DNA from: Flectonema sp. DT1601
Taxonomy: Eukaryota
Assembly: GCA_964019425.1 (NCBI GenBank)
Contig: OZ025782.1
Span: forward strand, 1,488,001-1,552,000
Direction of reading: 5' to 3'
Length of the DNA: 64,000 nt
Within the stretch, counting starts at the first letter, position 1, and each line of letters begins with the position of its first letter. Shown here piece by piece: positions 20,812 to 60,746 of this stretch. The position numbers and the translations under genes are program-made. The notes under the pieces were generated by a model, which was given only the letters and a program-made list of their open reading frames with translations, was not told the DNA's origin and did no database searches.

Positions 20812-21753
20812 CTACGTGACACACATTTGTTTGATCATGTGATGCGCATGCCTTCCTTCAGAGTAATAATTAAGTATGAGATCCTCACACTTGAATCCAA
20901 CTGATTCGTATAATGAAATAGCTCCATCACGAGTTGTGTCAACGTGAAGACAACATCCTTTGAGACGAGCTGATTGTATTCTTACAAACGAAGCATCCAA
21001 CAACATTCTTGCAATCCCTTGTCTTCGATGTGAAGAACTAACAGCGAGTTTGATAACGCAGGCTTCAGGTGAGGTCATCGTATAAAGTAAATAACCCACT
21101 AGTGTGTTGTTGCTGGAGTCCGTCGCTATTACTACTTTTGTATTTCTTTTACTTACTTCACGAGGCATGTCCATGATTTCATTCTTTGGAAATATTTTTT
21201 TCTCTAAAGAGATTATCTTTTGAAGCTGATCTGAAGAAACTTTTTCACAATGTTCAATTCTGATATCAGGATTTCTCTTCGTTGATGATGATGCGGTTTG
21301 CAGTAGTTTAATAATTTCACGATTACCTTTTTTGAGAGCCATTTGAAGTGGAGAAAATTTAAAAAAAGAATCAACCAAGTGAATGTCTTTAGACAAACAC
21401 CACCTGACTTGGTCGATTGATTGCGCAGCTACTGCTGCATGCAGGCAGGTACAGCCATATGAATCTAACTGGAAAGGATCGATCATCAATTGAGACGCAG
21501 CATAGTGACTCACATCAATATTATTTTGTTTCATTGAGTAAAACAGAATACCTCTTTCATTAGCATCTACGGCTGTTGGATCGTAACCGAGTTCTTTGCA
21601 TGCTTTGATCATAGCGATATTACCAAGAGAAGCATAGCAATGAATAAGACTGCAGTCGTTATCTCCTCTAAACGATGTGATGGCAGATGGAGTTTTCTTA
21701 ATTAGTTGACGAAGAGAGGTTGGCGTTTGTTGTGATACGTCAAACGATGTCAT
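20812..21753 (-). CDS. Ankyrin-repeat + GNAT (RimI-like) acetyltransferase fusion
   Basis: Ankyrin motifs (SLIHCYASLGN, GCTCLHAAV, SPLQMALKKGNREIIKLL); GNAT motifs (KLAVSSSHRRQGIA, LHVD…AISLYESVGF, NYYSEGRHA). Confidence 0.85.
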   Translation of the reverse strand: MTSFDVSQQTPTSLRQLIKKTPSAITSFRGDNDCSLIHCYASLGNIAMIKACKELGYDPTAVDANERGILFYSMKQNNIDVSHYAASQLMIDPFQLDSYGCTCLHAAVAAQSIDQVRWCLSKDIHLVDSFFKFSPLQMALKKGNREIIKLLQTASSSTKRNPDIRIEHCEKVSSDQLQKIISLEKKIFPKNEIMDMPREVSKRNTKVVIATDSSNNTLVGYLLYTMTSPEACVIKLAVSSSHRRQGIARMLLDASFVRIQSARLKGCCLHVDTTRDGAISLYESVGFKCEDLILNYYSEGRHAHHMIKQMCVT

Positions 21754-22162
21754 CCTAATAACTAAACCGTTTTTTAAAAAACTATAATTCGAAAAAAAAA
21801 AAAAAAAAAAAAAAATACTATTTTCACAAAATATTCACCAGTCTATTCATATAGTTTGTATTACCTCTGTTAGGGAACTATTGTGGTAAAGGTCAAACAG
21901 TCTTCATGTTGTAAATATCAATAGTGACTTTCTAAAACTATAGAAGACACGATGGAATATATAGATCTCAGAAGATAATTATAACCTTCTTCAAAACACG
22001 CGGCTCACATGGAAACACCATAGTACAGGGTGACGTTTTGTTGTTGTTGTTGTTGTGGTAGACGTTTGGTTTTAGCCGCTGTACCTCCTTCAGTGATGGT
22101 CAAAAAAGATCACATCAACAAACATAACTAAATAAGATTCAATTATATTAATCATGTCAAAA

Positions 22163-29384: not shown

Positions 29385-32300
29385 TTATTTTTTATTTCCT
29401 TCGTGCGGTTTTATCCCCATAGACATAAGTCGATTTCTATTTAAATCTGAGAAAAGTGCATCATGGAGTCTCGACTCCAACTTCCCAGTCACTCCAATGC
29501 GTTTTAAATGAATAACATTTGTATTACTCATTGAAAGAGGATTTACAGCATTTTTTGATTGAAAAATCTTTTGTTTATTCTTGGTAAATTGTAAAACTGA
29601 TGATAAATTTTGACTACTGTGAGCTGTTCTCATCCACGACTTAACGTCAACAATAACATGTCTCAAACTACTAACTTGATCTTTAATAATATCGATAAGC
29701 AATTTCAACCTTGTATCCTTAGGTACAACACCCTGAATAAATTGAGTCACATCAAGCCAATCAACGAACAAAGTCAAACTTTTTTTTAATGTTCGAAGGA
29801 CATCCTTAGAAGAATACACATCAGGCATTCTTGATTTCAAAAATGCATGCAGCAACACAGCTGTTGGATGAGGTCCGTCGGCACATTCGAACGACGACTC
29901 TATATCTCTGATGGAGGTAGTGACGTCTAGTTCTGTGTTATTTTCAAACGACTTTACAACATCGGAACTAACTTTCGCAATGTACTGAATACTTGACAGT
30001 ATCGAGGTACCATTTTTCAAGTCTACTTCTAGGTCAGATTTGAACACATTGAAATCTTTTTGTTGTTCTTGTAAAAAATCTGCAATCGTCAAGTTCGATC
30101 CCCGGTCAGTTCCAAATCCTGGATTGAACGCAAACTCAAATCTTTTTTGAAAAGCTCCAATAAACAACATCCATCGTTCTCTCATTGAATGAATTTCTTG
30201 ATTCTTATCTTTTATTCTATTCTCGCCCGAATCATTCTTTTCTAGTAAGTCGTGTGTACTCAAAAACGAATCTTTAACTTCACAAAAAGACTTAAACAGC
30301 TTTGCAGCCAACTGTGCTGCGGGAATTAGAATTTGAAGTTTATGTTTGGCTCTGAGAGAATGAATGTAGTTTCGTTTTGTCTTTAATTGGTCTTGAGTTT
30401 TTCCAACTTCAGATTGACTGGGTTTGATGATCATTAGAAAGGTTCCTTTCTTACCTTGACGTGCTGTTCTTCCAGCTGCTTGTTGTTCTACTCTGGTGTT
30501 GATCGGGAGGAATGTACAGATGACGTGCATGCCTCCATTTTTTTCACTTGTTGAAAGTGTGGTAATATCCATTCCTCGACCTGCTAAGTTTGTTGATGAG
30601 GTTATGGTTCCTGGTCGACCAGCATCTTGAAGAATCTTATCTTCATCTTTTGACTGAATACCAGTATACAACTGACATGTATCACCAAGTGAAGAGTGAA
30701 TAAGTTCTGCGTCTCGAATGCTGTCTGAGATAACCAAAACAGGTCGTTGATTTTGTTGAGATTCCCTTCTTGCACTGGATAACACTGCGGATAACCATTC
30801 TTCTTCACTAGTACTGGCTAGTACAATTGTTGAATCAGTTCTCTTTGAAACTGATGATGGTGGAATGTAAAAGAAATTAAGACTGTAACAGACGTCAAAC
30901 TCTCTTCTGTCATCTACCTCACCTATTGTTCCTGTGAGACCAATTTTACGATTGTACAGTTGAAAGAATGCGAGAACACTGCTGAAACCTCCAGTCATAT
31001 TCTCATCTGTTACTTCAACTCCCTCTCTCACTTGAATAAATTGATGAATTCCGTTTGGTAAAACCATCGATGCTTGGATAGCTCCGGTATTCTTATTGTC
31101 AACTTTTATAACTTTTCCTTCTTTAACAAAATATTCATGTTTGTTGACTAACTCTTTACTCTTTATAGCACTTCGAACCCAGGTATCGATGTTGGTATTT
31201 ATAATATTACGAAGACCCTTGTGCTTCACGCTATGTACTGTCGGATGGTTTAAGATGTCTTGTGCTAAAGCAGCGGGATCGACAGTACCCCATTCTTGCA
31301 TTTTATTGCTAATGAGAAAATAGATCCAGTGAAGCTGTTCCATTCCTGGAATGAAAGCAGAGAGTCTCGCTGATTGACCTGTTTATATTTGTTTTTTTTT
31401 GTGTTTTTTGTTTTTGATCAGTAGATTACTTTTTATACTACCACCCTCAACAACATACCAGAATTATCAATAAGCATATTATCAACCTCGTCAATGATAA
31501 CAGTTTGGTAGGGACGACTATCTCTGTGAGTTCGATTCATGTAGACGTCTCTTATAAATGTAAATTGAAATTGAGAAACAGTTCCATAAATAACATCCGA
31601 TGTGTACGATGCTTTATTATTTTGTCTGCAATTATGATCGACCGTCACATTAAACAAAGAGAAGAATCTTGACATCTTTGACGCATCACGTTTTGCTAAT
31701 ATTTCTGAACTCGTCATCACATCAACTTTCTGATTATTGTGAAGAACCTCATAAGCTGCTGCCATTGCTATGACTATGGTTTTTCCTTCACCTGTTTTCA
31801 TGTCACCAATGTTCGATTTGCTCTCTGAAGCAACGTCTGTTAAAGATAACAATGCCAAGATTTGATAGTTATTTGGACGAAAGTGAAATGCCATAAAAAC
31901 TGCTTCTTTTATCAAATAAATTAAGAAAATCCTTCTCATGGTCTTGTGTCTTGGAGGGTATTTAAATGACAACACTTCAGATAATTTTTTTTGAAATTCT
32001 GAAACAGTTCCAACCTCATCTGGATAAGGCATCTGAGGAAGTGAGTCTTCACTATCTGGGAGAAGTGTAGAAGACAGATCAAGTGGATCTGTCTTGTCAT
32101 TAGCTTTAGCCTTAAATTCTTTATTTAACTTTGCGACGAACTTTGCTCCATTAACACGTTGTACTTCTCGATAATGATTAGCAACCGAAGCGCATAATTG
32201 TTTATTGGAATCGTTTTGGTTTCTTCTACGAAATTGTTTTAATACTTCGTCACTGTACTCCCACCTCTCTCGTGTGTCTTCTTGACATAAAAATAGAATT

Positions 32301-35300
32301 TCTGAAACCCATCTTTTTGTCGGTTGCATTGATAAGTTTCCAACAATACTGTCAATCTTTTCATTCTGTTTTGTAGTGTGTGCTAATATTGATTTTAGCA
32401 ACCTAAGACAGACCTTAACGGGTAACTTTTCTCTCAGAGCTCTCGCTCCTACTTTTGATAAAAGTTTATTTTTACAATTCCTTCTCAAAATCGAATCGAC
32501 TTCGTCATCTGCAGGTGGAGTTCCTTCCAAAAGTGGATTTAAATTTGGAAAATAATCAGCCGGAAAACCTTTTTCCGGTGCTGGAACTTTGAGACAAAGA
32601 ACAAAAACTATTCCATCAACGATACATCTCACATTATCTTCATATCCGAGTGAAATTTGATTAATACTCGGGTATGGAACCCATTCTGTACCCTTAGCTG
32701 GATCTGATACTCTAGGTATTTCGTAAGGCAGTTCTGTTATTCGTAAGGCAGCAGCGAATGATGTCTTCGAAGGGATGAAACCTTCACCAATACCATGTTT
32801 AAGTAGCCTCCAACAGCCGTTTTCATCAACCGATCTCAGAATAGTTACCTCAGCCGGTATGTACTCTACTCCTGGAAAACAAACCCATGAACTGTCTTCT
32901 TCTAACAGTGCCGGGTCGTGATGCGGCAGATGAGACGTCGATAACACGTTCAGCATATCAGCAAAAGTTTTACCTCTTCCCTCATAAAATGTTCTGTTTA
33001 GATCTGTTGGAGCGTTTTCAAGTGAATACGTCACCCAATTTATTAGTCCTCGTTTAAAGATGTGACCCTTTAGTCGTGGGAATGTCGTATAACCGAGTGG
33101 GATCTGCTCATCTAATTCGAATGGGATCCAAACGCTTGAAAATGGTATTCGATGAACGTTTAAAGGAGCTGAAGTTACTCTTGATACGTTAGCAGGTTGA
33201 ATGCAATTCTTTTTAACTTTATCACGTCTCATACACGGAATTGGAATCTCATGTGGGAAACATTCATCAGTCGGGACTGCAGCCCAATAAGTTCTGCTCA
33301 TCAGACAAAAGTGAAAATTTGTGCAATTTTCAGGAACACTTCGGCGGGAACTTCCAGTGCAGACCCAAACTAGATTAGACTCACAGCAATCTATTTGAGG
33401 TAAGCCACCTGGTTTATAATTGAAATCAATCGGGTCAGTTTCTACAACTCCCTCAGCACATCTTGCGTCTTCCAAAGGGAGAATCTTACTTCTGCTGACC
33501 ATCGCAAACGCTTCTTTGAAAGTATTTTTATATATTCTCATTTTTTCAGGAAGTTTTTCATCAGTTCCAAAGCTGAGCCAAGTCATGTCTGAGTGAGGCA
33601 ATTTTGGTAATCCAGCTGTACTGCATTCTATTTGTTTACTACTCTTTAGAATAGAACTGTAAGGATCGTTGTTTTCTTTTAGTGATTGTTGATTCTCTTG
33701 ACTAGCTGGAAGCCACAATTCTGTCGAAGGCGCATCACATCGTTCTGCCAGACACCAATAGCGATCAGAATCTCCCTTGTAAACTCTAGACGGAAGTTCG
33801 TCAAAAGGAAGAACTCTTTCTTTCTTACCGAAGTATACATACACTGCATCAGGATCAGTCGCAACTGGTAGAGATTTACAGAGACTAGAAACACCATCTA
33901 TTTCAGCAAACGGTTTTGTTTCTGCTGGATATTTACGGCCACCAAGTAAATCTTTTGCTTGAGCATCAGTTATTAGAAGCCAGTAGATCGGAACAGAATG
34001 ATCATATCTAATTTCAAAGGTACCAGAATCTGGAAGATGTTGTTTTACTAAGTAGGGATACCAATAAAGACGATGAGCTGATGCTTTCGGTAGATTTAAC
34101 GGTAACTGAGGAATGTGTTTTTCAGATTTCCAAACAGCGACAGGATTCTCAGAAGTGGCAGAGCTGGAAAAACCACTCGCAGTAGACATTGTGAGGGGAC
34201 TCAGTACCGTTGTTGACATTTGAAATTCTGACGAATCCGATGAATCGTCCAAAGAGGTTTTTTTATTACTTGAAAAGTAGATTTCACCCTCAGGAACAGT
34301 TCTCACATGATACGACTTCCATAGTAGTCCTGTATCCTTATCTCTGATCATTCCTTTACTTATTGTTTCATCTCTGTGACAGGGAATTCCTACAACATCT
34401 TTTTTAAACGGAACCCACACCATATTCTCCATCCCTTGTTGTTTAGATGCCCTCAAAACTTGTTTTGGCATTGATGTCACTTTTAGTAACTGTGCCGATG
34501 GGATTTCTCTCCCAGGATACCATATTTCCATGTCGCAGGCATTTGCTTTAGTTGTTTGCAACCAAATACCGTAACTGGTCTTAGCAAGGTTTGAAAGATT
34601 CGTGTTCAGAGGGAGGTTATCTCTAGAGCTGTAGTATATCCAACCGTTTTTTAGTGTTTTCACCATCGGAAGTGAAAGCAATTCCTGCTTGAGTACTTCC
34701 TCAGTTATATTTTTAAAACTTTTACAAAAAGGTTTAGTCTGGACTCTAAAGTTCTGAACATGAAGTAAAGCTTCTTTTTTATATTTTCGATCAATCGTTT
34801 CCGTCGCAACCCAATACATGTTTTTTCTTATTGTGAAACAAGCACCAGGAGGAATAGCGGCGTATGACTCTGCTGGGCACCAACACGCATATGATTTTGG
34901 TATATTCCCTGGTGGTTTTCTATCTATAAGAGGTGATGCTGCTTTGTATAATCTCAAACGCTCATCAACATCGACTAACCAGTATTCATTAATTCCTTTT
35001 GTTTCAACATGTTGAATGTCGAGCGTCAGTGTTGGAGGTGTTTGTTGTTTTATTGGTGAGTTTGGTTTAATTAAATGTTGATCAGGCACACTATCTAAAG
35101 CAATCCAGTATTCACCATGTCTTATAGTGTATGAAGTACCAGGAGGTATTAATCCATATCGAGGTACTGTTATCCAGTCTGCATAGTCTATTGGAAGATT
35201 GGCAGGTAGTTGAGATGATTTGTTGGACGGATCGAGTAGTTGATTTTCCCATCCTTCATCATGATCTTTTTGTAAAGCTTCATGCCACTGTAACTCTGGA

Positions 35301-35494
35301 TCATCTAAGAGCTCATCAGAGAGAATTGATGTTGGCGTTGAGGTCTCATCGTCATCTTCGCTTATTGTAATCTTTCTTCCCATTGGTGATCCCTCTTCAC
35401 TCGTCATTCCTGTTGAGGATCCTATCCCTCCATCAACCATTTCATGGATTTTTACTTCCAAATTATTCCTGTTTTCAGTTCGGCAACCCCCCAT
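29385..35494 (-). CDS. Giant SecA-ATPase-domain protein (~2,009 aa); exons 35494-31459, 31378-29385
   Basis: SecA motifs in order: DMKTGEGKT, VDVMTSSEILAKRDA, Y.SDVIYGT, IIDEVDNMLID, GIHQFIQ.REG, GLTGT, RPVLVI, AGRPG.IT.STNLAGRGMDI, GGMHVI, RVEQQAAGRTARQGKKG. An 80-nt intron joins the two ORFs (…DNSG/QSARLSAFIPGMEQL…). Confidence 0.88.
31379..31458 (-). other. Spliceosomal intron, 80 nt (SecA-like gene)
   Basis: GTATGT…CTACTGAT…AAAAAAAAACAAATATAAACAG, phase 1, frame-restoring. Confidence 0.88.
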
Positions 35495-36247
35495 CGTTGA
35501 GTGCCTTTGCTTAGGGGAGATAAATTAATTAATACCGGGTTGTGATGTTTTTTTTTTTCTTTTTTGAAAAGTGTCTTTTTTGAAAGTCAGTGAAGTCAAA
35601 ACCACTGTTACATTATAATAATTTCTTTACCTGATTAACTAAATAAGAAGTAATACATTTCACGCGATTTAATTAAAGAAGTCCACGGGGAGGTGAGAGC
35701 ACCCGCGTTACGTGCTCCAAAAAAAAGAAAGGAGCACTTCATTTCTTATGTTTTATTTATTTTTTTTTCATTTTGGGCTTTTTCTCGTTCCACAGAGGGA
35801 ATGCGAACAATTTTTTTTTTCCTCCCCCTTTTTTTTTCAAAAAAAAAAAAAAAAGGAAGGGGAGGTAAATTGATACTATATTATCAGCTCAAAGGAACAA
35901 CAATCTCTCCGACAATCTTGACTGTCAGCGGCAGCGTAGTAAATGACTGCAAATAAGTAAATAATGCCACCGGAGGCTCCATTTACCTATGCTACTAGAA
36001 AGGGGAAAAACAGCTTCGTTGTCTGTAGGCGAAGTTAATTCCCAGCCGAGTACAGTTCTTGGTGCAAAGAAGCTCGTTGAGAAGGAAAAAGAAGGGCGTA
36101 GTCACCTCCGATTTCATTTTCATTTATTCGAGTATAGCTGGTGGAATGCAGTGCTCGCATGCTGCTCTACTCGTATCCAGCTGGGGTTTTCAATTACTCT
36201 AAAAAGCAGCAGCAAAATAGTAACCGAGCGAACCACAGGTGAGCAGC

Positions 36248-44317: not shown

Positions 44318-46507
44318 CTACATCAAAGAACAGACAGCACACTGCGCCTCAGTTAGGGCAATCGAGCAAGCTGATTGACAATTACTGTTGGCGCGATGTT
44401 TTGATCTATCTCGAGTACGTCTTTTCCTTCTTTTGTCCTTTTCACTTACAAAGTAATAAGCATTATTCTTTGGTTTCGTACGCGGTGTTCTTAAAGAACT
44501 TTTTTTAAGAAGAGGCATTGTTTTACTTGACAGATGGTTTCCTGTTTTCCACCTCCAAAACCTCTGAATGACAGCAGCAGACTCATGACGATCTATCAGA
44601 ATTTCATTCTCTTTCCTTCTCGCAGATATACTAGGTGAATCCCATATAGCATTGCGATATTCAGAAGTAGCGTGTAAAACAGTGCATTGGAGGTCGAGAA
44701 CAACTTCTTTTTCAGCGCAACATGGGATTGCTTCGGCAACAGCAGCTTCAATAGTTGATTGTGGTATGGCATAATCAGCTCTGAACCATTCATGATTAAG
44801 AGATTCAAGAGCTGTGATTCTTTCTTCTTTATCAAATGTCAACATTCGACCCAGTAGATCCAATACAACAGCACGAGGAAAATCTTCTTGAGAACCTGAT
44901 TTCCAACATCCATCAATAACTTCAGCTAGATTCCTACTCGGTAACATTGTAGCTGACGGTGATAATTTCTTTGCAACCGAATCTGGTAAATCTCTTTGGT
45001 TTAATATTTTATCACGTTCACCAGCATGACAACACGATAATATTAATTCAAGTTGATGATGGTCATCTTGTCCAGGAAATAATGGAACTCCCGTCAGTAG
45101 CTCAGCAAGAATACATCCAGTACTCCACATGTCTGCTGCAGGTGTTGTTTCTCTTGAACATAATAATATCTCTGGTGCTCTATACCACTGTGTTTGTACA
45201 TAGTCAGGGGTATCTCTTAGTGTTGTTTCTGATCCCTGAGAGAGCGTTCTCGCTAATCCAAAATCAGACAAGTACAGTTTTGGTCTAGCATCTACTAGTA
45301 AGTTAGTTGGTTTCAAGTCTCTGTGAACAACACCTCTCGCATGGATGTATGCTAAGGCACTTAGTAGTTCCATGCAAAACCATTTCTTATGTTGAGGAAG
45401 TAGTTGTTGTTGAACGAGAAGGTCTTCACAAGTATATGGAACAAAAGGCATCACCAGATGAACGTCTCTTTTATTTCTATCAATAAAAACATCATTCAGA
45501 GCAACAATGTTGGGGTGGCGGAGTTGTTGTAGAATTTGAATTTCACGATATGTTCGTTGACCTAATATTTGATGTGACCAAGTGTCGTGAATTGTTTTTA
45601 TCGCCACAACTGTACCTGTATCACGCTTAATAGCTCTATGTACAATACCATAAGCACCTCTACCAACAGTAGATCCTAATTGGTAGCACCGAGCTAATCT
45701 AGGATCGGTTGGAGTGTTGTTGTTGTTGAATGGCACAGAGAAGTCTTGAATTGGCTTACGAGGCTTTGATCTATCGGGCTTTTTTTTTTGACCCAAAGCA
45801 GGTTCAACAGCCCATGCTGAAGCATCACCTTGTCTAAAGACGTGATGTCTATTAACATCAAGAAGTAAACGCATACCATCAGCTAGGTTAGCAATGGTTC
45901 GATTTCTGCTAATTAAAAGATTTTCCGATTCGTTCGGAGCAGCTTCAACACACGCAGCATACTCATACTCAATGGCCGCCTTCGCCTTTTGAGCCAAAGT
46001 CAATCCCGAAGATAGAAATGACCATCTGCTGACATCAACGTAGTACATGTGATCAGGTATGTTTTTACTAAACTTTTTAACAATTTTTGATACAGCGATA
46101 CCATTTAAATACATAAACCAAAGTATTAGTATAACATCATCATATATATTACTAAGTTGGGTTAACACGATGCCGTGTTCCTGCGATGTCGGAGAGGAAC
46201 GTACTGCACGAGCAGCTTCAAGAACACCAGCGACTCGTTGCAAACCTTTTAATTTTTGATTTACTATTTTTGATACTTTTTTTAACTCTTCTTCAAGTGC
46301 TATAACAAACGCCTCGTGGGAGTGTTGTGAATTTTGTGAGTTTGAATCTGTTCCACTACTTCCCTCATCAGGGAGGTATTCTTCTCTCTCTTCATCGACT
46401 GGTATTGTTTTTTCTAACATATTACCGAGTCTTTCATAGTTTATACTTAGTCCACTGACACCAAACTCTCCACCAACTTGTTGTAAATATGAACCAAATC
46501 CCACCAT
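44318..46507 (-). CDS. SPX-domain + MAPK-like (CMGC) kinase + IQ motif + CaaX, paralog A
   Basis: SPX: MVGFGSYL…, F..ALEEEL.KV, YLNGIAVSKIVKKFSK. Kinase: GRGAYG, VAIK, QRTYREI, HRDLKPTN, DFGLAR, DYVQTQWYRAPE. IQ: AAVIQRFWRW. Ends CSLM. Confidence 0.9.
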   Translation of the reverse strand: MVGFGSYLQQVGGEFGVSGLSINYERLGNMLEKTIPVDEEREEYLPDEGSSGTDSNSQNSQHSHEAFVIALEEELKKVSKIVNQKLKGLQRVAGVLEAARAVRSSPTSQEHGIVLTQLSNIYDDVILILWFMYLNGIAVSKIVKKFSKNIPDHMYYVDVSRWSFLSSGLTLAQKAKAAIEYEYAACVEAAPNESENLLISRNRTIANLADGMRLLLDVNRHHVFRQGDASAWAVEPALGQKKKPDRSKPRKPIQDFSVPFNNNNTPTDPRLARCYQLGSTVGRGAYGIVHRAIKRDTGTVVAIKTIHDTWSHQILGQRTYREIQILQQLRHPNIVALNDVFIDRNKRDVHLVMPFVPYTCEDLLVQQQLLPQHKKWFCMELLSALAYIHARGVVHRDLKPTNLLVDARPKLYLSDFGLARTLSQGSETTLRDTPDYVQTQWYRAPEILLCSRETTPAADMWSTGCILAELLTGVPLFPGQDDHHQLELILSCCHAGERDKILNQRDLPDSVAKKLSPSATMLPSRNLAEVIDGCWKSGSQEDFPRAVVLDLLGRMLTFDKEERITALESLNHEWFRADYAIPQSTIEAAVAEAIPCCAEKEVVLDLQCTVLHATSEYRNAIWDSPSISARRKENEILIDRHESAAVIQRFWRWKTGNHLSSKTMPLLKKSSLRTPRTKPKNNAYYFVSEKDKRRKRRTRDRSKHRANSNCQSACSIALTEAQCAVCSLM

Positions 46508-46926
46508 AATTCATACTGTTAAGATGGAAGGTAAAAAATTAATTATTTTTTTGATTACACAATAGCAACACTTCCCACAAAATAAGTTAGTATTAATAAT
46601 TAGTACTAATAATGTTTATCAGTCAAAAGAAGGGGAGAGGGCGGGAAAATTCAATCGAATGCAAAAGTTCGTAGGACAACAAACAAATAATGGTTGGTTT
46701 CGGGCTAAAATTAAAAAATCTTTCTTCGGACCGTTCCCCTTACCCAGCGAAGAAAGTAAGGGGGACACTGCGGTGTCAGGTCTGTCCTACTCATCGCGTT
46801 TGCCCTCATCAGCTGGGAGAGGAAATTAGTTAGTTAGCAAAAAAATACAAAACTGATGGCTACGAGGAGTCTGGGTTATTTATCCCATGAATGAGTTATA
46901 CTGTAGAGATGAAAGTTTTTTTATAA

Positions 46927-47861: not shown

Positions 47862-50051
47862 TCATTGGATGATGCAAGCAGAACCACATCCGACATCCAT
47901 ACAGTTGCTCTCAACAGGTTTGTAGCTTTTTATATCACACCTCGTGTTTGATCTGAGAGGGACAGTTGTTGTTCCTCCACGTAGCCGAAGACCTTCACTG
48001 GCGCGAGATCGACGTTGGTGAACTCTTTTAGATGCCGACCTTCCTCTATGAGGACGAGGAATGGGTTTAGAACCGTTTCTGTATTTCCATTTAAAGAATC
48101 TTTGAATTATCGCTGCAGATTCGTGACGGTCGATATTTAATTCCGTTTCTCTTCTTTTTTTATAAAAAGTTGGTCCTTCCCAAATACCGTCTTGATAGTC
48201 TTCTGTGGAGTGTAATGTTGTACATGATAGGTCAAGCTGTATCTCTACTTCTCCACAAGCTGGTTTGCTTTCCATAATCAGCATTTCAATTACATCGTCA
48301 GGTACCTCTGGGTGTTCTTTAAACCACGGATGAAACATAGCTTGTTGAGCGTCTATTCTACTACTGGGTTCGAACTGAATTAATTGTTGTAAAAGATTAA
48401 CTGCGCTATCCCTTTCAAAGTCTGGTTGAATACCTGACTTCCAACAGACGTCAAGCATATCTGAAAGTGTTCTACGTGGTAAGAGGTATGATGTATTTTT
48501 TGAAAATTTCGCAACGCTGTTTGATTCTCGTGAGATAGCACCATTACCGTTTGAAGGTATTTGATGTTCAGCCATCGATGCGGGTATTTTAAAACCCGTT
48601 TCTTGGATTATTTCTTCAGTTCCTGTTAAGTTTTGACATCCCAAAATCAACTCAACCTGATGCTGGTCATCTTGTCCAGGAAATAATGGAACTCCCGTCA
48701 GTAGCTCAGCAAGAATACATCCAGTACTCCACATGTCTGATGCGCTTGTTGTCTTTTTTGAACATAATAATACTTCAGGTGCTCTATACCACTGTGTTTG
48801 TACATAGTCAGGGGTATCTGCGAGTGATGTTTCAGTCCCGTCAGAGAGCGTTCTCGCTAATCCAAAATCTGATAAATAACATCTAGGCGATTCATCCACT
48901 AGTAAGTTAGTTGGTTTCAAGTCTCTGTGAACAACACCTCTTGCATGGATGTATGCTAAGGCTGACAGAAGTTCAATCATGAATATTTTTTTATGTTCGA
49001 TATCAAGTTTTCGTTGAACGAGTAGATCCTCACAAGTATACGTAACAAAAGGCATCACCAAGTGAACGTCTTTTTTATTTTTATCAATAAAAACATCATT
49101 CAGAGCGACAATGTTGGGGTGGCGGAGTTGTTGTAGAATTTGAATTTCACGATATGTTCGTTGACCTAATATTTGATGTGACCAAGTGTCGTGAATTGTT
49201 TTTACAGCCACTATCGTTCCACTGTCTTTTCGTACAGCTTTACTGACTATGCCGTATGCTCCTCTACCGACCATGCCACCAAACTGATAATTTCGTAGAA
49301 GGCGCGGATCTGAAACAATTACTTTTGTACTTCCCCAAAAACTGTGAACCTTACCTCCGTTGACTTGTTTTGTCGGTTTTTTTAATTTTGCTTCTGAAAG
49401 CGACGGTTCGACAGCCCATGCACTCGGGTCATTTGATCTGTACAAGTGATGACTATACTCGTCTATGAGTTCTCTCATTCCTTTAGTGAATTCAGATATT
49501 GATTGATTTCTATTTGAAAGCTGCTCATGACTATTAGGAGCTGCATCTATTAAAGCAGAGTACTCACCCTCAACAGCAGCCTTTGCCTTTTGTGCATAAC
49601 CTAAACCAGCAGAAAGAAATGTCCATCGAAGTGGATCAACTATATATTTGTGATTGGGAAGATTTTTGTTATATTTTTTTACAATTTTTGATACAGCGAT
49701 ACCATTTAAATACATAAACCAAAGTACAAGTATTACATCATCGTATGCATTCGACAGCTGCGTCAGAACAATACCATGTTCCTGAGCAAAGCTGTATCGT
49801 CTGAATTCCCTGGCTGATTCCAATACCTGTCTTACTCTGCTTAGGGCTTTTAATTTTCTATTTACAACTTTCTGAACTCTGGTTATCTCTTCTTCTAATT
49901 TTTGAGTAAATCCTGCTGCCCTATCTTTTTCTAATAGTGGTGGGGTTGGTTTTCTTATTAATATTTTCTTCAGACAATCGTAGTCTAGAGACTCAGCTGC
50001 TACACTGTGGCGGTCGCTTACCTTACGAAGAAACTTACCAAACCCAACCAT
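47862..50051 (-). CDS. SPX-domain + MAPK-like (CMGC) kinase + IQ motif + CaaX, paralog B
   Basis: SPX: MVGFGKFL…LDYDCLKKIL, F.QKLEEEI.RV, YLNGIAVSKIVKKYNK. Same kinase motifs as paralog A. IQ: AAIIQRFFKW. Ends CIIQ. Confidence 0.9.
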   Translation of the reverse strand: MVGFGKFLRKVSDRHSVAAESLDYDCLKKILIRKPTPPLLEKDRAAGFTQKLEEEITRVQKVVNRKLKALSRVRQVLESAREFRRYSFAQEHGIVLTQLSNAYDDVILVLWFMYLNGIAVSKIVKKYNKNLPNHKYIVDPLRWTFLSAGLGYAQKAKAAVEGEYSALIDAAPNSHEQLSNRNQSISEFTKGMRELIDEYSHHLYRSNDPSAWAVEPSLSEAKLKKPTKQVNGGKVHSFWGSTKVIVSDPRLLRNYQFGGMVGRGAYGIVSKAVRKDSGTIVAVKTIHDTWSHQILGQRTYREIQILQQLRHPNIVALNDVFIDKNKKDVHLVMPFVTYTCEDLLVQRKLDIEHKKIFMIELLSALAYIHARGVVHRDLKPTNLLVDESPRCYLSDFGLARTLSDGTETSLADTPDYVQTQWYRAPEVLLCSKKTTSASDMWSTGCILAELLTGVPLFPGQDDQHQVELILGCQNLTGTEEIIQETGFKIPASMAEHQIPSNGNGAISRESNSVAKFSKNTSYLLPRRTLSDMLDVCWKSGIQPDFERDSAVNLLQQLIQFEPSSRIDAQQAMFHPWFKEHPEVPDDVIEMLIMESKPACGEVEIQLDLSCTTLHSTEDYQDGIWEGPTFYKKRRETELNIDRHESAAIIQRFFKWKYRNGSKPIPRPHRGRSASKRVHQRRSRASEGLRLRGGTTTVPLRSNTRCDIKSYKPVESNCMDVGCGSACIIQ

Positions 50052-51074
50052 TTGTATGGGCTGTGAAGGAGAAATATTATTTTAACAAAGAAGAAATAAA
50101 TACAATAAAACTCTCAACTTATCTTTTCGTTGGTTTTTTTATGTTACAACGTGCGACTCTTTATTTATTGTCAGATTCTACCTAAGGAAGAGGAAGGGGA
50201 AAAGTCGGTAAGATGTATTGTTCATGTTCCCCTTCTTCTTCTTCTTATTTTTTTTTTCCTTAAAATATCTCATTTCTACAAAGGGTGAATGCTTCGAATA
50301 TTGAGAATGAAAATACTTGCCCGGAGATACAGATGAAATGTTGTTTAATCCATCTTACAACATTTTTTTCATCATTTCTTTTTTTCTAAAAAAAAAAAAA
50401 CTGACTCCTTATCGGTGTGTTTTTTTTTTTTTTTTTTTTTTCCTTTAAACTAAAGTGTGCTTTAGGATATGTTCGGAGGAACTATCAAAGTCAACTTGTG
50501 AAAAACAACAAAAAAAAATAATTTTTCCCGACGTCTTCACTATACTGTAGTATTATTTTACCTTTCAAGATTTCAAAGTAAAGAAGTAATTATTGTTAAG
50601 AAACAAAGAACGGGGGAGAAAAAGGGAAATTAGAAGAAAAAAAAAAAGGACTATCGACCAGACCCAACAGTGCAATAATATTTCACCTTATCAGTGGGAA
50701 GGGGGACTACAGCGTCTCTCACCATCGATGTTTCGCAATATTTACAGCGATATGTTATTATTATTATTAATTTTTTTTATTATCGTTTTTTTTTATTTTT
50801 CCCCCTCTGTTTGGACTGACTCACCAGATATATTCTCAGCTCAACTTAACTAAATCGAGACTACCTTTTTTTTTTTTTTTTTTGGTGAGCAGCAGATAAT
50901 ATAAAAAAGAAGGGGGGAAAAAAAAAGATGAAAAAGCCCTTCAAAAATAGGAAAGGAAAAAAAAAAAAAGTTATTTAAGTGCGATTATTATTACTTATAT
51001 AAAAAAAAGGGGAAGAAAAAAAAGAAAAAAGAGGGGGGAAAAAAAGAAATTCTTTAAAACATGTTTTTTTTTTT

Positions 51075-55527: not shown

Positions 55528-58107
55528 TTATTCCGCAATGACAGCATCTTCCATCTCAACTATCTTTTCATCACCTGCATCGTTAAGGATGCCGGCTTCA
55601 TGAGGATGAATATAAGAGACGTGGCATATTTCTGAACGAAGGATGGGGGAGATATACTTTTCATCAAGTCTCGCAAGTCGGGACATCAAAGCTTTGGATT
55701 TATCGGGTGATTCTGACGGTGATTCTGGAGACTGATCGTTTTCAATGAGCGGAGATTCCTTATCAGAGAGTGGATCACTACCCCCAGTAAGTTGTAGTTT
55801 TGCTAGTAGATATTCAGTAAAGGCTCCCATAACCACGACAGTCAGTACGACCATCATTAATGTGGTTGAGACGAAGACTCTGGCGATGTCGACAGTGATG
55901 TAGTCGTTTGGATTTTTTGATGTTTTCTCATCTTTTTGAGCTCTCGTCAACATAATCAAAGAAAGACCAAACGCAATTGCACCTCGTAATCCAGAAAACC
56001 ACATGAAGAATTGCATGCTTCCGGTAACCTTTCCTCTTTTTCTATTTGTATTCGCCATCGCAGATAACGGAAAGATATTCAAACCTCTTGCCAATAACAT
56101 TATCAAATAAACCATTCCAATAAATCCGAAATTCCAATTATGTTTGCTAAAAGACCAAAATGCCTGTCCAAGCAATACAAAAACATACGTCTCAGCAAGA
56201 TGAGCCAAAGTTTTAAAAACAAACACAGCTGACTCACGAGCATCTTGACTAAGATTATACATAGCATGGTGTCCCTCAATTCTACCACATATAAATAGCG
56301 ACATAATACCAGAAAGGCTCAGCATTTCAGCTAAGTAGTAAGACCCAAGTGCGAATGCTCCGATGATAATGATCTCAATAGAAGGGTGGTGGGTAAAGTC
56401 AACGTGTTTTACAAACAAAGAACACAAACAACCAATTAAATAACCAATTAAACAAGAAAGAACTGAAATTTTAATAAAATCGACGGTGGCGAGCAGCAGA
56501 GATGAAGCAGTTAACTCCTGGTCAACGAACGTGATCATCACATTATACAAAACAATACTCACAGCATCATTCAAAACCGCCTCTCCGAATACTAAATTGT
56601 ACAACAAAGGTGGCTTTTTAAGATCAAATTTCTGACCTAAAACCGCAATCACCGCCACAGGATCAACTGCAGATAACAACGCTCCAAATGCAAGAGAGAT
56701 AAACGGAGCACCGGGGTGATCTGCAAGCTGGCTGAATGTAAAGCTTGATATTCCATATACCAAAAATCCAATAGTGCATGCTGAGATTAGTGTTCCAAGC
56801 ACAGCATAAAGTAAGATAGTTCCCAAATTTTTCATCACACCTTTGTGTTCAAGAGTGAATCCCGCTTCGAATATAATCGGAGGTAGGATGAATAGGGCGA
56901 ATATTTCCTCATCAAATTGAATGTGAGAATCGAGATCACCGTCAATCAGGTATTCCACTAAATACATAACTCCTCCAATGATTGCTCCGCACATAATAAC
57001 GCCAGCTGATTCTGATAAAGCTTTTACTTGTAACTTTTGTACTATCCTCACTGTAGAGAATGCCATAACAATTATGACAGTTATAAAGAAATAGTCCTGT
57101 GCGGATCCTTCTTCTTCTTCCTCAGGACGCTCGACACATATCTGATGACTTTTTACCCAAAAGCATTCTTTCTCTGCCTGACACGTAATATTTGTAAGTT
57201 GCTGCTCGCATTTGTCTTCGGGTTCTGATACTGTTGCGCAATGTTTACCAGCTGGGTTCCATTTACAATTTGATAACTTCTCACAATCAGATTGAGAGTG
57301 AATTAATGAACAGCTCTCCTCATGAGGTGTCGTGGTACAACTACTGTTTGATGAGTGCCATGTACCTCCGTGATGAATACACTTCTCTTCCTCAGAGATA
57401 CCAACACACGATGTGGTATTCCACTCGCAGTGTGAATTGGTAGTACATTCATTCTCTGTTTTTAGTTCAGTACAATTATCATTGTGGGGTTGTGTGATAC
57501 AGGATGAATTTACCCAATGACCTCCGTGGGCAGTGCAATCTTTTTCTTCAGATAATTCAACACAAGATGACGATGAGGTATTCCAATTACAATGAGCATC
57601 GAGAACACATTCAGACTTTGTTGGTAATAAAGAACAATGGTTAGAACACGAAGTATTTGAGGGAAACCATTGACCTCCGTGAGCAATGCACTCTTCTTGT
57701 TTAGATATCTCAACGCACGATGTGGTATTCCATTTACAATGAACATCACTAACACAATTTGATTCAAGTAATGACATGCAGTGGGACTGACTTGAATTAA
57801 CAACACACGAACTTACATTCCAAAGACATCGAACGTCAACTTCACATAAATTTTGAGACATCGCAGAACAGTCGAGAGAAGCAGCAATCACACAGCGATT
57901 CGATTCAAAGACACAATTTGATATTTTTACACACTCAGCAGCAGTCATGTTTACTTGACAAGGCGACGTGATACAAGACGTTACATTCCACATGCAGTCG
58001 TTATTTTGATCACAAGAAACCTTTAAATTACCACCACAGTTATCACACATTACCCCAATAGTCAACAAATTCCATAAAAATAATAATAGCAGTGCGTTTC
58101 CACTCAT
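55528..58107 (-). CDS. CPA1 Na+/H+ exchanger (NHE/NHX family) with signal peptide and Cys-rich repeat ectodomain
   Basis: LPPIIFEAGF, GTILLYAVLGT, FGALLSAVDPVAV, LYNLVFGEAVLNDAVSIVL, LSGIMSLF.CG, WFSGLRGAIAF; aa ~21-325 are C-x(n)-C-x5-C-x-W-x(n)-C repeats. Confidence 0.92.
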   Translation of the reverse strand: MSGNALLLLFLWNLLTIGVMCDNCGGNLKVSCDQNNDCMWNVTSCITSPCQVNMTAAECVKISNCVFESNRCVIAASLDCSAMSQNLCEVDVRCLWNVSSCVVNSSQSHCMSLLESNCVSDVHCKWNTTSCVEISKQEECIAHGGQWFPSNTSCSNHCSLLPTKSECVLDAHCNWNTSSSSCVELSEEKDCTAHGGHWVNSSCITQPHNDNCTELKTENECTTNSHCEWNTTSCVGISEEEKCIHHGGTWHSSNSSCTTTPHEESCSLIHSQSDCEKLSNCKWNPAGKHCATVSEPEDKCEQQLTNITCQAEKECFWVKSHQICVERPEEEEEGSAQDYFFITVIIVMAFSTVRIVQKLQVKALSESAGVIMCGAIIGGVMYLVEYLIDGDLDSHIQFDEEIFALFILPPIIFEAGFTLEHKGVMKNLGTILLYAVLGTLISACTIGFLVYGISSFTFSQLADHPGAPFISLAFGALLSAVDPVAVIAVLGQKFDLKKPPLLYNLVFGEAVLNDAVSIVLYNVMITFVDQELTASSLLLATVDFIKISVLSCLIGYLIGCLCSLFVKHVDFTHHPSIEIIIIGAFALGSYYLAEMLSLSGIMSLFICGRIEGHHAMYNLSQDARESAVFVFKTLAHLAETYVFVLLGQAFWSFSKHNWNFGFIGMVYLIMLLARGLNIFPLSAMANTNRKRGKVTGSMQFFMWFSGLRGAIAFGLSLIMLTRAQKDEKTSKNPNDYITVDIARVFVSTTLMMVVLTVVVMGAFTEYLLAKLQLTGGSDPLSDKESPLIENDQSPESPSESPDKSKALMSRLARLDEKYISPILRSEICHVSYIHPHEAGILNDAGDEKIVEMEDAVIAE

Positions 58108-60746
58108 TTTTTTTTTCTTTTCTTGTTTTTTTGTTTTTCCTGTTTACTTTGAAGAATGAATAAAAATTTGTGTTCAGAAGGTATATTTTGAAAAAAACAC
58201 AAATACCGTTCTTGAATCTGCATTTTTTTTTTTTTTTTTGTTGGTTTCATCTGGGAGAATTAAAAAATAAAAGTAAAAAAAAAATAATGTTACTTTCATA
58301 AAAGCATATTCGTATTCATATCTAAAGTTGTTGTTCAGCATCTACAAGTTAAAACAGAAAAAACTTGTCAGCCAATCAAAGGAAAAATGTGACATAAAAT
58401 TGATTTTCATTTTTAAAAAAGAAAATAAAGAAAATAGAACGGAGCTGGAAGATATGAGTTGAAACGATTTAAAAAAAAAAAAAAAAAAAAAAGAAAAAGA
58501 AAAAGAAACACCCCGTTGGCATTGATAAGAAAACACGATTATTTTAACTTTTCAATTAACGGGAAGAATGAAAGGGGAAAAAAAAAAAGAAAAAAAAGAA
58601 AAAGAAAAAGAACAATCATCAATAATAAAATTTAGCAAACTAAGTTAATTTTTGATGGGGAAAAAAGATATGTCAGGCCAGGGGGGGTCTGCCCCGCTCT
58701 TTATAAAAAAACGCTGCGACCATTTTTGGCGTAGGGGGAAAGAAGCAGAAACACAGAGAAAAAATGAAGCTCACAAACATCGTTAAGTTTTTAAATCCAT
58801 CTTTTCAACAATAAAAAAAAACAGATAAATTAGTCGGTAGGCAGTTATCCATTCCAACGTTACTGGAGACTACGAGCTCTAGCAGGGTAACTCACAGCAA
58901 CAGAGGACACAATCCGTAACCAGCAATTTAACAATTTATGAAGGATCTCATTATAACAACAACGACACGTAACACCAACTCAAAACACACAGGAAGTCGA
59001 ATATTGAACAATTTAAAAAAAAAAAAAAACCTTCCAAATAAATATCCCTGGCTGCAGATCATCCGCAGCTAAAAAGAGACATAAGAGTGAGGATAATAAA
59101 GATAAGGGGGGGAAAAAAGGGGGGGAGAAAACATAATAGAAAAACGGAGCAGAGAATATTTTTCTTTTTTTTTTCTACACACAAATCAGCACATAATCCA
59201 ACTACGAACAGGTAGTTGGTCGGACGATGCAACACAAAGAGCGGAGGATGCCATGAGTCGGGAATAAAAGAAGGGGAGATACATAAAAGGGTGAACAAGA
59301 CACACGCAATGTCATATATGAATGGGAACAAAAAAGACCAGAGATTAAGGTAATCACAAAGTGTTGACTTTTTCGCTTTAAAACAAAAGAAAATAATAAT
59401 AATAATAATAAAAGGCAAGGCTGTATACGAATGGGGTTTTGATGCGGGCTCGATGATAAGAACTTCGATGAGGATATTACCTCCCTGAAGATTCAAAAAA
59501 AAAAAAAAAAAAAAGAAACAAGAAAAAAAAAACACACACAATCAATAACACAGAAAATCGAAGCACCAGATTACCACACAAACTACAACCATTTTAAATA
59601 AAAATGAATAAATAAAAAAGAGGAAGAAAAAAGGAAGAGGAAGAATAAATATATGCCTAGGGTACACTATCTTACACGCGATGACGCTGCGCAAGACTCC
59701 CCCAAGCAATAAATAAGCCAAACTCACTTAATCTCCTCCGCAGTGACATCGTCCGTTATTTCTTAGTTTGATGAAGTGTTGGATTAGCATACAAAGAAAT
59801 AGTCATGAAAGAAAAAAAAATAAGTAGAAAATTTATTTTTTTTATTTTTTTTTTATTTATTTTTTTCGAAGTCAGGTCAAAAAATTTCCGGAGAAATTGT
59901 CTCCGATCAAAACAAATAATTTCAAAGCATCGTCTCTCTCGTGTATCTCCCAAGTGACTTGTTAAGCATGCGCGAAGTTGCTGCATGTCTTGTTAATTTC
60001 ACTAAAAAAGATATGAAAAGAGAAATCTAAATAAAAATTAAAAAAAATTCGTGTTATAATGAATTCATGAAACAAAAACGTATCCATGAGACACACATGA
60101 GTGTCGTTGAAGAAAAAAGAAAAAATCAAATTACATACTTATTTTGCGGGGTTTTCGCAATATTTTAAAAAATAAGAATACAATCTTCTGCGGGATAGTG
60201 GACGCGTCGAAGTGAAGTACGAGTGACACACAAAGCTAGTCGCTGTACAACACAAGTAGAACTAAATTAGAGATTTGCCGGTTTATTTTTTTTTTTCTGT
60301 GACAAAATACAAAACAAATTCATCGCGCTGTCATTTGGTATAAAATTAAAAAAAAAAAAAAATGAAATGAAACTTTCGGATTCCCCACATCTTTAAATAA
60401 AAGTGATAAGATATATTTTTTTTTTTTTAAATTTTTTTTTAGAAAAATAAACCAATAAAACATACATAGACCGAAAGGAACAAAAAAAACAAAGATTTTA
60501 GTGAGTTTTGAGAAACATCCAGCTGCAATAATTAACCCCACAACGCAGCAAAAATATTTTAGGAAAGTACCTCGAAACTCACAAAAGGAAAGAAGAATCA
60601 CAGTAGTCAGTCGTAAATTTAATAGCGCTGGCAGAAACCGGCGCTATTCTTTACAAGTCGACATTGAATTCCAGCTGCGACAAAAAAAGTATGGCAGCGA
60701 AAAGGTGTTGGAAATCAATACTACTCTTTAAAAAAAAGAGAGAGAA

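Follow-up and report, generated by a model that had tools for sequence, protein, structure and literature searches.

A repeat-bearing SecA-type ATPase of diplonemids that ends before the hairpin and tail of its giant relatives: a candidate polypeptide-threading motor

The stretch of DNA analysed here (64,000 nucleotides of Flectonema sp. DT1601, contig OZ025782.1, positions 1,488,001 to 1,552,000; hereafter the window) carries on its minus strand a gene for a SecA-like protein in which an array of eleven tryptophan- and proline-rich (Trp/Pro) repeats is joined to a SecA-type motor. What is new is this joining, together with a motor that keeps Gate1 and is predicted to keep the clamp domain, scaffold helix and finger of SecA and a protein that ends before the hairpin and tail found in its relatives. 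We give about an even chance to the protein being a cytosolic, often lipid-anchored ATPase that threads polypeptides without SecY. An earlier note on this DNA had described ordered SecA motifs of both nucleotide-binding domains (NBD1 and NBD2) in an intron-containing gene of ~2,009 residues, with which the motifs, Pfam matches and exon join found here agree; its account of the motor is borne out, that of the protein start only in part, and it overlooked the repeat array (residues 83-979) and the absence of the hairpin.

Judged by its reading frames the window is eukaryotic; 22 of the 23 frames of at least 150 residues lie on the minus strand, and among the products are CPSF100, a protease of the papain family and several protein kinases. 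Two minus-strand open reading frames (31433-35524 and 29385-31382) are fused through a GT..AG intron of 80 nt (31458-31379) into a single frame of 2,009 residues, starting with MGGC at 35494. This join, one of 19 in-frame GT..AG joins listed, reproduces the junction of the nearest protein, P0002 of Flectonema neradi (1,997 residues, transcript-derived), with 35 of 35 residues identical, and the same junction aligns without gaps in the remaining four orthologs. Since the transcript-derived ortholog has the junction letter for letter, the splicing of the two frames that the earlier note had supposed is upheld, and the sequence describes one nuclear gene with one intron and a 2,009-residue product. 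Both the intron and the stretch upstream of 35494 are A/C-rich on the coding strand, and no polypyrimidine tract precedes the AG of the intron. The other orthologs are P0124 of Lacrimia lanifica, P0003 of Diplonema papillatum (KAJ9462513.1), P0004 and P0005, which with the window protein and P0002 make up the six diplonemid proteins referred to below; in protein searches, orthologs were found in three named diplonemids, with one protein in each. These relatives point to a diplonemid as the likely host of the gene. No convincing transmembrane segment was seen in the window protein, a single 19-residue stretch within the last repeat reaching a hydropathy of 1.67. The parts of the gene are as follows.

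31459..35494, minus strand: exon 1 (codons 1-1345 and the first base of 1346), from open reading frame and join
35474..35494, minus strand: Gly2/Cys4 start, predicted myristoylation and palmitoylation signal, from a pattern in 3 of 6 diplonemid orthologs
35249..35434, minus strand: acidic linker, likely disordered, residues 21-82, from composition and low identity
32558..35248, minus strand: eleven Trp/Pro repeats of ~75 residues, residues 83-979, with no Pfam match
31940..32557, minus strand: linker, residues 980-1185, up to NBD1, with nothing in Pfam below E 0.1
31460..31939, minus strand: first half of NBD1, with Q1211, Walker A (31778-31801), DEVD (31481-31492) and Gate1 Asp1343 (31466-31468)
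31379..31458, minus strand: 80-nt GT..AG intron, A/C-rich, directly after the DEVD helix, junction as in P0002
29385..31378, minus strand: exon 2 (through residue 2009 and the stop), from open reading frame and join
30981..31378, minus strand: preprotein cross-linking (clamp) domain with its stem, residues 1346-1478, from Pfam, alignment and model
30420..30980, minus strand: end of NBD1 and NBD2, with motifs III, V and VI and Gate1 Arg1641, from Pfam and motif alignment
30255..30395, minus strand: 47-residue helix, predicted scaffold helix, residues 1674-1720, from the model
30012..30203, minus strand: helix-loop-helix, predicted equivalent of the two-helix finger (IRA1), residues 1738-1801, with no preceding wing domain, from the model
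29625..29993, minus strand: helices resembling tetratricopeptide repeats (TPR), residues 1808-1930, homologous to the wider family's TPR region, from profile match and model

The motor motifs stand in the order Q-motif (Q1211), MKTGEGKT (1232), DEVD (1335), LTGT (1493), TNLAGRGMD (1608) and QAAGRTARQG (1645), and Pfam recognises SecA_DEAD in exon 1 (E 2e-30) and P-loop_SecA in exon 2 (E 1e-14). The equivalents of Q87, K108, D209, E210, D212, R509, Q570, R574 and R577 (E. coli SecA numbering) are kept in all six diplonemid proteins, as well as in two further proteins, P0194 and P0196. The Gate1 pair D217-R566 (Asp1343 and Arg1641 here) is kept without exception in the alignment: all 6 diplonemid proteins have it, as do 56 of 56 rows from other family members and all 22 canonical rows. 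Rows entered the alignment if they showed the patterns of Walker A and motif VI, for lack of which 3 of 101 were discarded. This pair is named for E. coli in 10.1101/2021.01.18.427065, and Gate1 couples preprotein binding to the ATPase (PMC3101351). The clamp domain is matched by Pfam SecA_PP_bind under the cut-off (E 4e-4) and is 131 residues long, compared to 154 in E. coli; it is the best-conserved block relative to Flectonema neradi (90% identity), with 45-54% identity to the other orthologs. The motifs of the DEAD motor and the Gate1 pair are thus intact in sequence, and the protein is likely to be an active SecA-type ATPase.

The C-terminal part was modelled from exon 2 with AlphaFold, using a 40-row alignment that holds no canonical SecA (mean predicted local distance difference test score, pLDDT, 85.6). 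The model contains the clamp domain, NBD2, the 47-residue helix, the helix-loop-helix and the TPR-like helices, so that our initial view of a protein lacking scaffold and finger no longer holds. Its residues 1-458 superimpose on residues 217-774 of substrate-engaged Bacillus subtilis SecA (6itc) with a Z-score of 20.8, over 431 residues at 3.8 A; the alignment covers the scaffold helix and the two-helix finger, while the wing is missing in the model. By rmsd and TM the closest fits are those of the four SecY-bound SecA structures, at 3.3-3.9 A over 418-431 residues (template modelling score, TM, 0.46-0.52), compared to a TM of 0.26-0.42 for free SecA. In a profile alignment of the C-domain, Trp1748 lines up with the first helix of the finger, and the C-domain with its TPR region is shared with the wider family of giant SecA-domain proteins (profile match probability 96.1%, E 3e-9). 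No match to SecA_SW (PF07516, wing and scaffold) was found in the window exons or the five orthologs, and the structure atlas gave no usable match for the C-terminal region or the repeats. Following the model, the clamp domain, scaffold helix and two-helix finger are predicted to be arranged as in substrate-engaged SecA.

By its sequence the protein is not a canonical SecA, and it is very unlikely to be a plastid one. Full-length orthologs reach ~200 bits in the secA families (208.7 and 209.7 for P0002), far below the cut-offs of 800-862 (TIGR00963 800; PRK12904 814), while the window exons reach 82.5 and 124.3 and the control P0076 reaches 1127. Trees of 98 rows, computed under two models, unite the six diplonemid proteins in one clade (support 100) within a non-canonical group. 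The sister of this clade is a set of 53 giant proteins, whose sources include ciliates, rotifers, insects, Daphnia, fish and intracellular bacteria. This 59-row group, with a Shimodaira-Hasegawa-like approximate likelihood ratio (SH-aLRT) support of 99 under both models (100/99 in a 37-row tree), is divided from canonical SecA by a branch of support 100. Grouping with nine canonical SecAs is rejected by the approximately unbiased (AU) test (p 4e-76), in trees that contain no authentic plastid or cyanobacterial SecA; of three candidate rows picked by a motif, two grouped with a Ktedonobacteria SecA. The earlier note's idea of a repurposed SecA-type motor outside plastids is supported, with the peptide-handling parts predicted to be kept, but its description of large eukaryotic SecA-domain proteins as sporadic is not: a paper of 2013 (PMC3639933) already described this widespread family as a clade. 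By sequence, the protein belongs to that clade of giants with SecA domains from eukaryotes and endosymbionts, which is known but unstudied, and is one of its deepest branches.

Members of the clade include Wolbachia wBol1_1091/1092, phage WO SecA, and proteins of Amoebophilus, Tetrahymena, Daphnia and insects (PMC3639933, PMC5062602), and SecA-like domains are listed among Amoebophilus effectors (PMC3482391). With these the diplonemid protein shares the non-canonical placement, the type of motif VI, the C-domain of scaffold, helical hairpin and TPRs, and Gate1, whereas it differs in the Trp/Pro repeats and in having neither a Gly-rich hairpin with long tail nor a fused peptidase. With canonical SecA and SecA2 it shares NBD1, clamp, NBD2, Gate1 and the predicted scaffold helix and finger, but it is only ~20% identical in structure alignments, has no wing domain and no SEC-C tail, and has a 1,180-residue N-terminal extension, a TPR-like tail and no known SecY partner. 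Giant proteins of Omnitrophota and actinobacteria likewise combine a SecA motor and clamp without a recognisable wing or scaffold Pfam domain (10.1101/2023.11.21.568195; PMC8195603), but they, unlike the diplonemid protein, have many transmembrane segments, and it has been proposed that these giants export themselves. No functional test of the giant clade was found in the literature searched. A search on SecA in diplonemids, which covered few subscription papers, found nothing on this protein (PMC8321541, in its available part, concerns another matter), and one on SecA with Diplonema papillatum gave no match, although supplementary annotation tables of diplonemid genome papers may list the gene; a lead on DUF3638 yielded no paper on this topic by title.

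The repeats, each with two conserved Trp and several Pro, seem to be peculiar to this motor. Each of the eleven was scored against a profile of the remaining ten, and all of them came out above every one of 500 shuffles (by the smallest margins at 8.5 against 7.7 bits and 9.0 against 8.4 bits), the repeat boundaries having been set by a profile that includes all eleven; the orthologs have 8-11 copies in preserved order. Among 1.84 billion representatives, the eleven-repeat profile matched nine proteins: window exon 1, three orthologs, P0194, P0196, P0195 (333 residues, from short contigs) and two low-complexity sequences (P0197 and P0198), which were discarded as noise. P0194 and P0196 are divergent (best motor identity 37-38%) and have nine repeats and a motor, P0194 also TPRs. 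In all 6 of 6 full-length matches the repeats lie immediately ahead of this motor, and they are absent from all other family proteins in hand; a word-indexed search with the repeat region returned the window protein and P0002 only. Within the giant clade the repeat carriers branch deepest; the monophyly of all eight is not found in the best tree but is not rejected either (p 0.31). None of the eleven repeats was matched in Pfam, and the best match of the repeat profile in the PDB has an E of 0.38. The structural model of the repeats is poor (pLDDT 47.4) and hints at small three-stranded sheets; its best VIA Z was 4.2 among 48,161 chains, and Foldseek gave nothing at E 0.001, but with a model this weak the structure searches are neutral on whether the fold is new. 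Because the repeat was found here only beside this motor, a coupled function is hinted at.

At the other end, the diplonemid proteins stop 332-364 residues past motif VI, whereas most other family members extend ~700-2,000 residues past it. This end coincides with the position of a Gly-rich hairpin in the relatives, recognised by pattern in 29 of 56 rows at a median of 354 residues past motif VI. Among the other family members, a hydrophobic segment past motif VI was counted in 57 of the 69 proteins and in 17 of the 20 locus frames (the two sets share one protein, and many members are related); only 1 of the 6 diplonemids has one, and none of the 23 canonical SecAs. A hairpin profile reaches at least 20 bits in 28 of 28 seeds and 29 of 60 non-seed members, and in none of the 23 canonical SecAs or the eight repeat carriers (0 of 6 diplonemids, 0 of 2 others). 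Hairpin and tail are called common in the clade by this count of our own rather than by a published criterion, and no paper describing the Gly-rich hairpin was found. From their sequences, members with the hairpin may enter membranes and move a tail of their own; neither hairpin nor tail is present in the diplonemid form, which therefore likely acts on other proteins.

Several observations on the relatives stand apart from this comparison. A hairpin and variable tail follow the TPR region in many of the proteins and locus frames examined (P0006-P0178, L001-L022, L081-L082). The SecA-like motor is repeatedly fused to peptidases, namely OTU (P0014, P0030), Ulp1/RickCE-like (P0010, P0017) and UCH (P0095). 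Eight SecA_DEAD matches occur in a Legionella genome (G001, reached via L004) and seven in a chlamydial genome (G002, via L010), mostly in frames of 1,200-3,500 residues alongside one housekeeping SecA. Two giant SecA frames of eukaryote/endosymbiont type (L008, L009) lie on short contigs labelled Saccharibacteria and Methanobrevibacter, which are possibly mis-binned.

The N-terminus offers a possible means of membrane attachment. The MGGC start, with its Cys4, fits the myristoylation pattern, and is followed by an acidic region (17 D/E vs 3 K/R at residues 21-82); as in the earlier note, no presequence-like N-terminus was seen in the 2,009-residue protein. Residues 1-82 are 8-16% identical to three distant orthologs. 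Gly2 and Cys4 are nevertheless found in the window protein, D. papillatum and P0005, the rest of whose N-termini are 12-16% identical, and the occurrence of MGxC in 2 of 4 orthologs beyond the sister sequence has a p of 5e-6 from composition, or 5e-4 when a tenfold enrichment is allowed for. This recurrence is well beyond chance, and among the other family proteins 3 of 83 fit the myristoylation pattern. The dual-acylation start proposed earlier thus holds for the present gene, and 2 of the 5 orthologs share it despite N-termini that cannot be aligned, but it is absent from the rest, including the closest ortholog, and so does not look like a defining feature; judged by these sequences, either the signal is dispensable or the starts of the orthologs lacking it have been mis-called. 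In euglenozoans, Rheb paralogs are dually acylated through a Gly2 with a nearby Cys, as here, and the signal was gained and lost across paralogs and lineages (PMC5869587). Rheb is an unrelated protein, and acylation of the SecA-like protein is predicted only.

Put together, the motor would take hold of unfolded chains and thread them, working at the cytosolic face of a membrane on proteins other than itself and without a bacterial SecY channel. The Trp/Pro repeats and TPR helices might select or hold the client, and entry of the chain into the clamp would open the Asp1343-Arg1641 gate and thereby switch on ATP turnover. Cycles of the finger would then move the chain, either extracting it from a membrane or complex or unfolding it, while N-terminal acyl groups, where present, could substitute for the hairpin membrane anchor of the relatives.

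A number of points weigh against this proposal. MGxC is absent in P0002 (the closest ortholog), Lacrimia P0124, P0004, P0194 and P0196, and the role given to the repeats is a guess. R220, R342, R347, R572 and D185 are lost, though invariant in 22 canonical SecA rows. Because no significant match to canonical SecA is seen in the sequence of the C-domain (profile-profile E 0.09-0.3), the finger depends on one AlphaFold model, which may be biased towards learned SecA shapes; the length and sequence of the finger loop vary among orthologs, and Z-scores are tied between open and closed forms of SecA. Finally, the absence of the hairpin is not confined to the repeat carriers, as 31 of the 60 non-seed members lack it by profile too (some being truncated).

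A rather unlikely alternative, to which the relatives lend some weight, is a cell-autonomous defence ATPase, whose repeats would sense a microbial or viral ligand and whose motor would strip or unfold proteins on an invader or its vacuole. The peptidase fusions of the relatives, their multiple copies in Daphnia and ciliates and the listing of SecA-like domains among Amoebophilus effectors fit such a role, as does the origin of the best bacterial matches, among the matches listed, in Legionellales, Rickettsiales, Chlamydiae and Wolbachia, one Legionella genome having six SecA_DEAD matches over the cut-off (in frames of 1,200-2,900 residues) besides its housekeeping copy. The diplonemid form, however, has no effector domain or tail, and with one protein per named diplonemid and a preserved repeat order it looks like a stable gene.

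The closeness of the model to SecY-bound SecA, with scaffold helix and finger kept, would also suit a translocation motor docked on a channel of the host, be it Sec61 or the pore of another organelle, and pushing proteins across a membrane as SecA does on SecY, which we regard as unlikely. Eukaryotic Sec61 is normally driven by the ribosome or by BiP. In addition, the wing domain, which has been implicated in the contact with SecYEG (PMC4452313), is absent, the surface of the C-domain has diverged beyond sequence detection, and in the model five TPR-like helices appear to follow the finger at the would-be channel site.

It is highly improbable that the protein is a superfamily-2 helicase or translocase on RNA or DNA, as weak Pfam matches (DEAD, ResIII, Helicase_C) and RecG (E 0.058) might suggest, since the SecA-specific clamp, Gate1, scaffold and finger are kept and SecA structures score Z 17.6-21.3 against the model, compared to at most 15.7 (over about 140-200 residues) for nucleic-acid helicases. 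A plastid, endosymbiont or contaminant SecA, as the database name 'Protein translocase subunit SecA' would have it, is scarcely credible given the intron and the eukaryotic neighbours on one strand, the low secA scores without SecA_SW, the trees, and the fact that diplonemids, to our knowledge, have no plastid.

Elsewhere in the window, two tandem protein kinases on the minus strand (44318-46510 and 47862-50081) look MAP-kinase-like, and both begin with a region resembling SPX (Pfam SPX E 2.5e-5 for one and 0.0062 for the other, neither reaching the cut-off); from sequence, phosphate- or inositol-pyrophosphate-sensing kinases are possible. A Na+/H+ exchanger (55528-58143, minus strand) has a long Cys-rich repeat region at its N-terminus with weak matches to PSI and Paramecium surface antigen, and a GNAT acetyltransferase is fused to ankyrin repeats (20812-21834, minus strand).

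SecA is treated as the SecY-tied motor of bacteria and plastids. If the polypeptide-threading reading is right, the repeats and the SecA motor could together be an ancient, SecY-independent eukaryotic machine, a SecA-derived counterpart of the AAA+ extractors and an early form of the giant family, later members of which would have gained the membrane hairpin and cargo tail and become self-translocating conflict proteins traded with endosymbionts; this wider proposal is rather unlikely. The subfamily nevertheless provides a clean entry to the giant SecA clade, with the peptide-handling parts kept and the hairpin and variable tail absent, and the ortholog in Diplonema papillatum (a species that can be tagged) adds to its use as such an entry point.

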